The notes beneath the pieces are model-generated. The model worked only from the letters and a program-made list of their open reading frames with translations, had not been told where the DNA came from and ran no database searches. Shown in pieces: positions 52,101-55,100 of a stretch of DNA of 57,932 bases. How positions within the stretch are numbered: position 1 is the first letter of the stretch; each line of letters opens with the position of its first letter. The position numbers and the translations under genes are program-made. This DNA is from Chiloscyllium plagiosum. Taxonomy: Eukaryota. The DNA lies in contig NC_057752.1 of NCBI RefSeq assembly GCF_004010195.1, positions 10,429,595 through 10,487,526 of the forward strand, written 5' to 3'.

Positions 52101-55100
52101 TGGTGGAAGCTTTAAATGGATGGATCAGAAGTTGTGGAACAAAGAGAGTTCTCTCTATCTTTATAACCTGACCCAAAGTAGTGATCACTTGAAATTTGCT
52201 TCAATCGGCTTTCTGACATGAAGACAGGGATTGCAAAGTGGTAACACTCAGCTGGTACCTGCAACCCACTTGTGATCTGCTGCTTATTAGATAATCGGCA
52301 GATGTGATGCACAGAGTAGGAAAATTCCCAATGAATTGCAAGCATGTCAATTTCTGATTTGATTAAAATGAGCAGGGCAAGCTTGCGAAAGCTGATCTGG
52401 ATATCTTTGAATTGACTGCAGCAATGAATAAAATAACAGCAATAGAGAAAGTGCAAGAAAAATACAGATTTCACCTTTTGCTTTGAAAACACAGCAACCA
52501 TTGATGGGCAAACCTTCCCAGGGGGGACCACTGTGGTTGTGCCCATGAATGGGACCTTTTATATAGTAATTTATTTATATAGGGAAAAAAATAAATAAAT
52601 TACGATCGCTGAGAGCAGGACGGTCTTTCAGACAGACAGGGCAGCATTCTCCAGAAGGAATCTCGGGATTAGGGCAATCTTTAAGATCTTCGCAGATTAT
52701 CTCGTCACAAAGGATAATCCCAGAATCACAGACACAGATTCTACAAGGCTCGGGTTTCCACACATCTTTGTCACTGTACATGTGCCCATCTTGTAAACAG
52801 TTCACTTTCAGGTCCTCTGTAAGCGAAGGGCGGGCGGAGAGGAGAGAAAGAGAGGGCAAGAAATCTTTTAGTCATGAATAACAGACTGATACACAGGATA
52901 GAACATTCACGAGTTTCTCTGCATCTCTATTGGATTTAAAGATTTCAATGTATTCTTTGTCCACACTTTTCAGGCTAGTCACATTGCAATAAAACAATAT
53001 GGTTGCACCACAGGAATTTATAAATATGATTAAATATTGATGTGTTTACACATATATAAAACATTACATACACGCATTTAAACACAAATAGTTAGCAATC
53101 GATTATCTTACTGATGCATAATATTCAATATCCAAATGTTCATATGTTAAGTTCACAACTTCTAAATGAAAACAGACACAAGAGATTATCAATGGCTAGA
53201 ACAACTGATTTAAAATCCATGAGCCTATTAGGTACTTCTTTGACCTGGATTAGTTAGCTATTCTGTAACTTTCAATCAAAAATGTATAAAATAGGAGTAT
53301 ACGCACACAATTGCCAGCAGATGGCACTATTGTATTACTCCAATTACATTGAAACTCCGCATATAAAAAACCCAATAAAATCGCGACCATAAAAATCAGA
53401 CTTTGCAATTCCATTGTTAAAACTACTCGATTACATTTACTAAACCTGACTACAAAGTAGGAACTTAAAAATCTAATAAACGGTGCTGTGATCAGAACTC
53501 GGGAAGTGGTTTGTTAAAGAATATTAAATGTGGATTTACAGTGCAAAATGTTTTAAACGGAGGACCCTTCCCGAAACCGTATCTTACAATTTTTAAGACA
53601 TGCCAATATTAGGTAATGAATTGCAATGACAAGTATGGAAGGGGCTGTCTGGCTTCTGCAGTGGACCCAGTTGCTGATTTGGGATCAGCCTCCCTGCTCT
53701 GTGTGAGCCCGGTAGACCCTCAGGTTGAATGAATAGATCTCATTCTCAATTGACACACACACACACAGCGGCTGATTCACAGCCCACTGTCGGAACCAGG
53801 TTAAGCAAATAATAAGGGGATTGCAATCAATCCACATACACACAGTCTCTCCGGGCAAACAGCAAGGACACAAAAGCATCATTCAGAAACTGCTTCCATC
53901 CAGCTCCTGCTTGCATTCCAACATTTCAGAAAGACAGGACTCACAGTTAACCTGGCGTTCTGAAGACACCTTCAATGAACCTCTATTTCCAACTGTTGAC
54001 ATTTCTATACCATTTTTCAATTACCTATCTGTAACTGGAAGTCCCTTTCACCGTGTCTGGAAAGGCAGTGAGAGGTTTATTTGTTCTGAATATCCATGCT
54101 GACTTGGGGTAAAAGACCAGCTCACAGTGTCAGAATCTCTGGGTCCCAGTTTGGAACGGTTTGAAGGGGGTGGACACTAATTCTGACGGCGGGACCGCTT
54201 TGAAGTTATTTCCTCTCGCAGTTTCCCAACTGAAGTCCTCCTTTGTGTGGTGGGACTCAGCAGAGAAAGGTCTGATCAGGAAGCTAGTGTTTTCTAACCG
54301 CACTTCCAACACAACCAAACGGGTTTTATAAAGTGGAACGCCACTTTAATGTATTTTCAAACCCACCTGAATTGCAGTTTTGCAGAGAACTATAAGGCTC
54401 AAATTTACAAACAAGTTCCCCTCCCCCCGCCAATCCCAAACATACACACACTTCTCTTTGAATTCAGTTTCATTTACGCTCCCAAATTCAAGTCTTTGAT
54501 CTCACAATCAGACACTGCACTCGGTTCAGTGCTGGTGAGAGGGCTTTCAAACTTCCTCAAGTAAGGGGGTGGGGGCGGCTGGAATATTGGTGTCTGGAGC
54601 CTAGTGAGTGTGGACTGGTTGTAAGATGATCGAAGAGAGAGTGATAGACTCCCCTTGAAGACCAAAGACAGTCAGGAGAGAGAGAGAGAGAGACCAGACA
54701 ATATCGAGTGACACTGAAACTTGTCCTTTCTTGTTAGCGGGCTCTGTATTGTTGCTCTCGGCTGGGACTGTTTCAGAGCACATTTCAAGATGAATAATAA
54801 GTGGTGGATTAGTCTAAATACCCCAATCGGACTAACAGGGACAATTATGCGGTAAAAAGAGAAACTCATCAGTGGAACCGCACAATTTACTGTGGTTGAG
54901 ACTGCCAGTGGGATTTGTGACCAGTCGACTGAATATTCTCTCTCCCTCTCTATCTCAGGTTGTTTCTTCCCTTCAAAACTCTAACTTCTCTATAAAATAA
55001 AGCCGTAACATTCCACCGTAAACCCTGCGGAATTTTACAATAATATTCAACTTGCGCCCATGCTCTTCAGGCGTAATATTGACAGCGCCTAGTGGCGGAC

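Follow-up and report, generated by a model that had tools for sequence, protein, structure and literature searches.

The col2a1 gene of the shark Chiloscyllium plagiosum carries a weak donor behind its cysteine-rich exon 2, and the GT of that donor opens a perfect 13-bp stem whose arms are shared with two teleost-type col2a1 loci. Three nucleotides upstream, where the teleost-type loci carry a second GT, the shark carries AT. We consider it likely that this is the shark copy of a conserved col2a1 stem-loop, that the stem hides the weak donor so that exon 2 is skipped by default, and that inclusion would be of the IID type only. Use of the donor at 52603 and skipping of exon 2 in the shark are predictions. 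A role for a stem-loop at human COL2A1 exon 2 (PMC1935003), alternative splicing of the exon in Xenopus (PMC2289160) and the isoforms IIA to IID (PMC12627340) are published, according to the available portions of these papers.

The col2a1 Locus and Its Exon 2

The window, by which we mean the whole stretch of DNA analysed, comprises 57,932 nt of Chiloscyllium plagiosum NC_057752.1. The col2a1 gene lies on its minus strand, which holds 34 of the 35 Gly-X-Y stretches in the window, and has the following parts:

55982..56075, minus strand: coding part of col2a1 exon 1, 94 nt, signal peptide, ending in phase 1, placed by tblastn to catshark P0076
52604..52816, minus strand: exon 2, 213 nt, VWC (cysteine-rich) domain, phase 1-1 cassette
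51065..51081, minus strand: exon 3, 17 nt, starting with GG
46155..46187, minus strand: exon 4, 33 nt
45756..45788, minus strand: exon 5, 33 nt
42454..42531, minus strand: N-telopeptide exon, supporting col2a1 identity

Identification of the gene as col2a1 rests on identity with catshark P0076 (90% across the exon 2 domain), the 17-, 33- and 33-nt lengths of exons 3 to 5, the N-telopeptide exon, matches of the exon 2 domain to the human collagen II structures PDB 5NIR and 1U5M, and the Pfam assignment of exon 2 as a VWC domain (PF00093, E 7e-17). As in the gene that harbors the known stem-loop element, exon 2 encodes the VWC domain and preserves the frame, the reading frame staying open with the exon in or out. 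Since exon 3 starts with GG, the junction residue is predicted to be Arg whether exon 3 is joined to exon 1 or to exon 2. Relative to the human domain, shark exon 2 has one extra codon ahead of its first Cys (52814-52800, minus strand), and catshark P0076 has it as well.

Elsewhere in the locus, intron 1 of shark col2a1 contains an enhancer-like stretch (53782-53727, minus strand) with a resemblance to the SOX9-bound chondrocyte enhancer core in intron 1 of mammalian Col2a1. A 17-nt inverted pair, 94% complementary, joins this stretch (53735-53751) to the start of intron 3 (51045-51061, +4 to +20 of the exon-3 donor), which by a rough estimate is about the chance level for 11 kb. Approximately 1 kb into intron 2, an A-T rich copy resembling the 5' arm of the hairpin (51506-51531) is a potential pairing partner of the 3' arm (76% over 25 nt), a likeness that is probably compositional. 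Rfam gave no matches in 51000-56300, and a tandem-repeat search returned no tandem repeats.

A Weak Donor Behind Exon 2

GT dinucleotides were scanned across exon 2 and the first 150 nt of the intron and scored with a matrix trained on the gene's 37 other donors, a small set. Two are of concern here:

52602..52603, minus strand: predicted exon-2 donor GT, directly after exon 2, predicted from sequence
52778..52779, minus strand: candidate IIC-position GT, 37 nt into exon 2, frame-shifting, at the place expected of the mammalian IIC donor

The GT at 52603 is the best-scoring in-frame, stop-free GT that retains the whole VWC domain, with a score of 0.6 versus -5.7 for the only alternative, the in-frame GT at 52621. 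A GC at 52609 scores -9.4, and all nine GTs within 150 nt downstream sit behind a stop codon. Best in its place, the donor is weak by the standard of its own gene: an equally low score occurs in just one of the 37 other donors, and the G at +5 that 34 of them possess is absent. A weak 5' splice site is likewise a property of the known COL2A1 element.

The frame-shifting GT at 52779-52778 scores 2.5, above the predicted exon-2 donor. Human IIC retains the first 34 nt of exon 2, according to the available part of PMC8899160, and the extra shark codon before the first Cys means that a GT 37 nt into the exon fits the IIC place. L002, one of the two teleost-type loci, has a counterpart of this GT, and the other, L001, has none.

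A Perfect Hairpin at the Start of Intron 2

The hairpin consists of three parts:

52591..52603, minus strand: 5' stem arm, which opens with the predicted exon-2 donor GT (IID register); identical in L001 and L002
52579..52590, minus strand: loop, 12 nt, pyrimidine-rich, its sequence not conserved (12 nt in L001, 10 nt in L002)
52566..52578, minus strand: 3' arm, the perfect complement of the 5' arm and purely intronic; identical in L001 and L002

An earlier note on this DNA had described a perfect 13-bp stem, its partner at 52566-52578, whose first pair is the donor GT, and this proved exact: 52603-52591 is complementary to 52578-52566 across a 12-nt loop, and the first pair involves the G of the GT that follows exon 2. 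The stem is the sole perfect inverted repeat of at least 13 bp (loop up to 30 nt) in the window, where the runner-up reaches 10 bp, and 12 shuffles of the window that preserved local composition produced one such repeat in total. A chance origin of the stem was rejected on the strength of this uniqueness and of the shuffle counts. Folding of a 101-nt region gave a z of -3.1, with 3 of 200 shuffles equally stable. Pairing probabilities of 0.90-1.00 are predicted for all 13 stem pairs, with +1 to +13 inside the stem. Exposing -3 to +6 of the shark donor is predicted to cost 7.4-8.3 kcal/mol, a value matched or exceeded in 2 of the 37 other donors of the gene. The claim that RNA structure sequesters the donor is thus supported as a prediction, the intronic part of the site being fully paired in the fold. 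The stem is rich in A-U pairs and, taken alone, of modest stability (-7.3 to -8.1 kcal/mol). Beyond a mismatch, the A present in place of the upstream G (52606-52605) could lengthen it by two pairs with 52564-52563, but the predicted probability of this is only 0.07-0.15.

None of the 13 stem pairs varies among the three DNA sequences compared (shark, L001 and L002), which leaves no compensatory changes among the 13, and this zero covariation suggests that protein binding may be as much a reason for the conservation of the sequence as pairing is. The 3' arm is free of coding or splice-site constraint. A stem-loop that adjoins the donor and has vertebrate orthologues corresponds to the known element, as indicated by the predicted structure, the arms of L001 and L002, and the translation signature of the human-type cluster.

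The Donor Lies in the IID Register

52605..52606, minus strand: AT at the IIA-register position, where teleost-type loci have GT

L001 and L002 are two teleost-type col2a1 paralogues that read GGTT before the stem, giving GT-N-GT, a GYNGYN tandem. The shark has no such tandem: as the earlier note had observed, AT (52606-52605) replaces the IIA GT three nucleotides upstream of the donor. The three sequences align gap-free all the way from the VWC domain to the end of the 5' arm, with the shark AT on the upstream GT and the shark donor on the downstream GT, so that the boundary alignment proposed as a check places the donor at the IID site and not at the IIA site. In the available parts of the respective papers, IID is IIA plus 3 nt (PMC8899160) and mouse IID closes exon 2 with an additional Arg (PMC10024168). 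Rodent-type records give Gly-Arg-Asn-Leu-Phe on read-through (P0102) and Gly-Lys when spliced (P0177). The ORF P0093, a member of the cluster that contains the human PDB chains 5NIR and 1U5M, reads Ser-Gly-Cys-Asn-Leu-Phe over the boundary, consistent with the human sequence that the note gives. Together, the alignment, the definition of IID, and the rodent and human-type translations identify the downstream GT as the IID site; the gap-free alignment, the mouse Arg and the rodent-type records bear out the assignment of the shark donor to the mammalian IID position.

The additional residue reported after the last Cys is also real, and its cause is the donor register; an indel was rejected because the shark, L001 and L002 align without a gap. 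Between the last Cys and the exon-4 motif the shark has 15 residues, versus 14 in most IIA-register models, which is what a donor 3 nt downstream would add. In L001 and L002 the upstream GT has a consensus score of -10.5 and the stem GT +1.3, whereas exposure is predicted to be 2.4-2.8 kcal/mol cheaper for the upstream GT (6.2 vs 9.0 kcal/mol in L001 and 5.9 vs 8.3 kcal/mol in L002).

Distribution of Stem and Register Across Vertebrates

A locus scan of metagenomes returned four loci, namely the two col2a1-type loci used here, a collagen I-type locus (L003) in which no stem was found, and a spliced collagen V-like sequence. Locus scans gave one irrelevant match in prokaryote genomes and none in viral contigs, and three prokaryote stretches that matched the two-arm pattern were dismissed as chance AT-rich repeats. 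The arms are the same letter for letter in the shark, L001 and L002, while the loops differ in sequence and length. The identity of the arms supports, for the stem, the proposal of the earlier note that the element predates the split from bony fish.

Protein and representative searches yielded 223 proteins, 76 of which bear the col2a1-type signature: 54 are read-through ORFs with [Cys/Arg]-Asn-Leu-Phe, 13 are spliced models and 9 are other. The residue before [Cys/Arg]-Asn-Leu-Phe is Gly in 52 of the 54 read-through ORFs, Asp in one and Ala in one. A further 81 cluster members with the signature (Gly 76, spliced 2, other 3) are close relatives and not independent. When the pattern is loosened, each of the 55 read-through tails fits the 3' arm in one frame, 23 of them solely through an early end. 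The stem GT is kept or fitted in 54 of 57 read-through-type ORFs (representatives and individually flagged members). The exceptions are the teleost-type P0048 and P0297, whose translations misfit the stem GT, and the diverged P0127; the stem GT is therefore not universal.

Named spliced models in the IIA register come from seven teleosts, the garter snake and a parrot, the upstream register being used by all seven named teleost models with an intact exon-4 motif. The IID register is found in bullfrog P0049 and gecko P0015, both ending in Asp-Arg as predicted in the shark, and in the blue tit (Gly-Trp). A frog-like read-through, P0088, gives Asp-Arg-Asn-Leu-Phe, and bobwhite P0082, a record that its source labels UNVERIFIED_CONTAM, gives Ala-Arg. 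A Gly codon capable of the upstream GT occurs in both teleost paralogue types, snake, passerines, parrot and mammals and is missing in the bullfrog, gecko and bobwhite sequences, the GT within that codon being seen directly in L001 and L002 and read from protein elsewhere. Gene models of other species may be human projections rather than RNA-supported. This shark is the whole chondrichthyan boundary sample: the protein and representative searches returned one chondrichthyan record, catshark P0076, which ends before the boundary. They yielded no normal full-length col2a1, and no boundary from chimaera, skate, Xenopus, coelacanth or gar. The goby model P0059, in the IIA register, has Glu at the junction, which means that its exon 3 starts with AA or AG; if that paralogue has TGT at the stem GT as in L002, IID use would make a stop codon.

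Proposed Mechanism and Alternative Explanations

We hypothesize that the stem, which encloses +1 to +13, masks the donor GT from U1 snRNP. The U1 snRNA picks a donor through pairing around the GT (PMC1779574, available part). If this pairing spans roughly -3 to +6, the entire intronic half of the shark site would be paired. Skipping of exon 2 would then be the likely default, and inclusion would need the hairpin to be held open, perhaps through a TIA-1-type protein bound to its U-rich arm or loop, or perhaps through U1 that loads before transcription has reached the 3' arm. Such opening would permit inclusion of exon 2 in progenitor cells. For mammalian Col2a1, a review table and a reference title both name TIA-1. 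Where both GTs exist, the IIA GT would be the poorer match to consensus but would lie outside the stem and be cheaper to expose, and this cheaper exposure would account for the excess of IIA over IID. Only IID would be made in species that lack the upstream GT; with AT at that position, inclusion in the shark would likewise yield an IID-type product only.

The same element could instead have been kept as a sequence-specific protein-binding site or as an enhancer of a weak donor, with exon 2 constitutive in the shark and the hairpin incidental or transient. The lack of covariation at all 13 pairs and the A-U richness of the stem fit this explanation, and so does the silence of the literature searched, which holds no shark isoform data and in which chondrichthyan cartilage papers do not mention col2a1 isoforms in their main text. 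A constitutive exon is nevertheless improbable: the two arms remain exactly complementary while the intervening loop varies both in sequence and in length, the symmetric cassette exon is followed by one of the gene's weakest donors, and skipping of exon 2 is on record for mammals and Xenopus. We consider it far less probable still that exon 2 uses a different donor, either an in-frame GT inside the exon or an intronic one downstream, and leaves the stem GT unused. The weakness and predicted full pairing of the stem GT would suit such a choice, but the nine downstream GTs behind a stop codon and the low scores at 52621 and 52609 would not, and the bullfrog and gecko models, which have the same Asp codon, take the stem register. 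The hairpin-masked IID donor remains our preferred explanation.

Is the IID Donor Ancestral?

The earlier note had gone further and called the IID position the ancestral donor, which the present data do not establish. Parsimony on a textbook tree, with the lamprey models left out of the setting of polarity, ties at the jawed-vertebrate root (4 steps for Gly vs 4 for non-Gly); the corresponding counts are 2 vs 3 at the root of amniotes, 3 vs 3 at that of tetrapods and 3 vs 4 at that of bony vertebrates. Gly in the snake versus Asp in the gecko, and Gly in passerines and the parrot versus Ala in the bobwhite, demonstrate that loss recurs. Most likely, the upstream GT is old in bony vertebrates and was lost more than once, and we lean slightly toward the shark state being one further loss of it.

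A history that differs from this in polarity alone, the mechanism being the same, starts from a jawed-vertebrate ancestor with only a stem-buried IID donor; a later A-to-G change would then have created the IIA GT as an escape donor, either a single time in bony vertebrates or repeatedly. Its attractions are that the stem GT matches consensus far better than the upstream GT and is so widely retained among the read-through-type ORFs, that the Asp-Arg ending is common to shark, bullfrog and gecko, and that it costs no more steps at the jawed-vertebrate root. The preference for Gly at the bony-vertebrate and amniote roots and the recurrent losses (snake/gecko, passerine and parrot/bobwhite) count against it. 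So would lamprey P0239, which has Ser-Gly ahead of its junction residue and would shift the root to Gly (4 vs 5), though lamprey P0095 disagrees. With a single chondrichthyan boundary to draw on, the catshark record stopping short of it, we give this history a little less than an even chance; and since one shark cannot set direction, the bare claim that IID is ancestral stands at much the same level. Joining this history to the mechanism, the IID site would be the original donor, in a hairpin unchanged since the split of sharks and bony fish, and IIA a later escape donor of poor match that wins only by lying outside the stem. The shark, ranid frog, gecko and quail would make whole cysteine-rich procollagen II via IID, as natural IIA-null species with the hairpin as sole gate. 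We offer this joint reading tentatively and rate it slightly lower again than the IID-first history.

Relation to Known Systems and Implications

McAlinden et al. 2005, in J Biol Chem 280:32700, reportedly described the weak 5' splice site of COL2A1 exon 2 with an adjacent intronic stem-loop and is said to have found it conserved across species; McAlinden et al. 2008 reportedly described the COL2A1 IID isoform. The shark element resembles the stem-loop of McAlinden 2005 in gene, exon, weak donor and position at the start of intron 2, and its arms are those of the teleost-type loci. Unlike loci with an upstream GT, where the stem begins at +4 of that donor, the shark stem begins at +1 of the sole available donor, and IID, a minor form in mammals, is predicted to be the sole exon-2-containing form in the shark. 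The GT-N-GT of L001 and L002 is like the GYNGYN tandem donors of Hiller et al. (2006; PMC1779574) and amounts to an IIA/IID pair, whereas the shark has no tandem. In the available part of that paper the preferred donor is tied to the strength of U1 pairing, while at col2a1 preference seems to fall on the weaker donor, as structure would explain; that part has no match for COL2A1 or "secondary structure".

The literature searched, with the primary McAlinden papers of 2005, 2008 and 2014 outside its scope, contained nothing about the exon-2 donors of col2a1 in cartilaginous fish, nor about lineages restricted to IID. A term search of skate and catshark cartilage papers found isoform terms in reference lists only. 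A lamprey collagen paper and its nine supplements contained nothing on the exon-2 element, the supplements of PMC8887668 are accession lists that hold no sequences, and the available parts of PMC9393224, PMC8836218 and PMC3767648 add nothing further on the element.

The element itself is real, conserved and already described in mammals. New are its presence in a shark and the absence of the IIA donor, an absence that the shark apparently shares with several tetrapod lineages; in these lineages IID is likely the sole exon-2 form. This is a specialist point on a well-studied element and no new system. If it is true, the structural switch behind the progenitor-to-chondrocyte change of collagen II would go back to the first jawed vertebrates, and IID, a form for which translation in mammals has been termed hypothetical (PMC10024168, available part), would be a working protein form in species without an IIA donor. 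Such species would give a clean test of hairpin control, with no competing donor.
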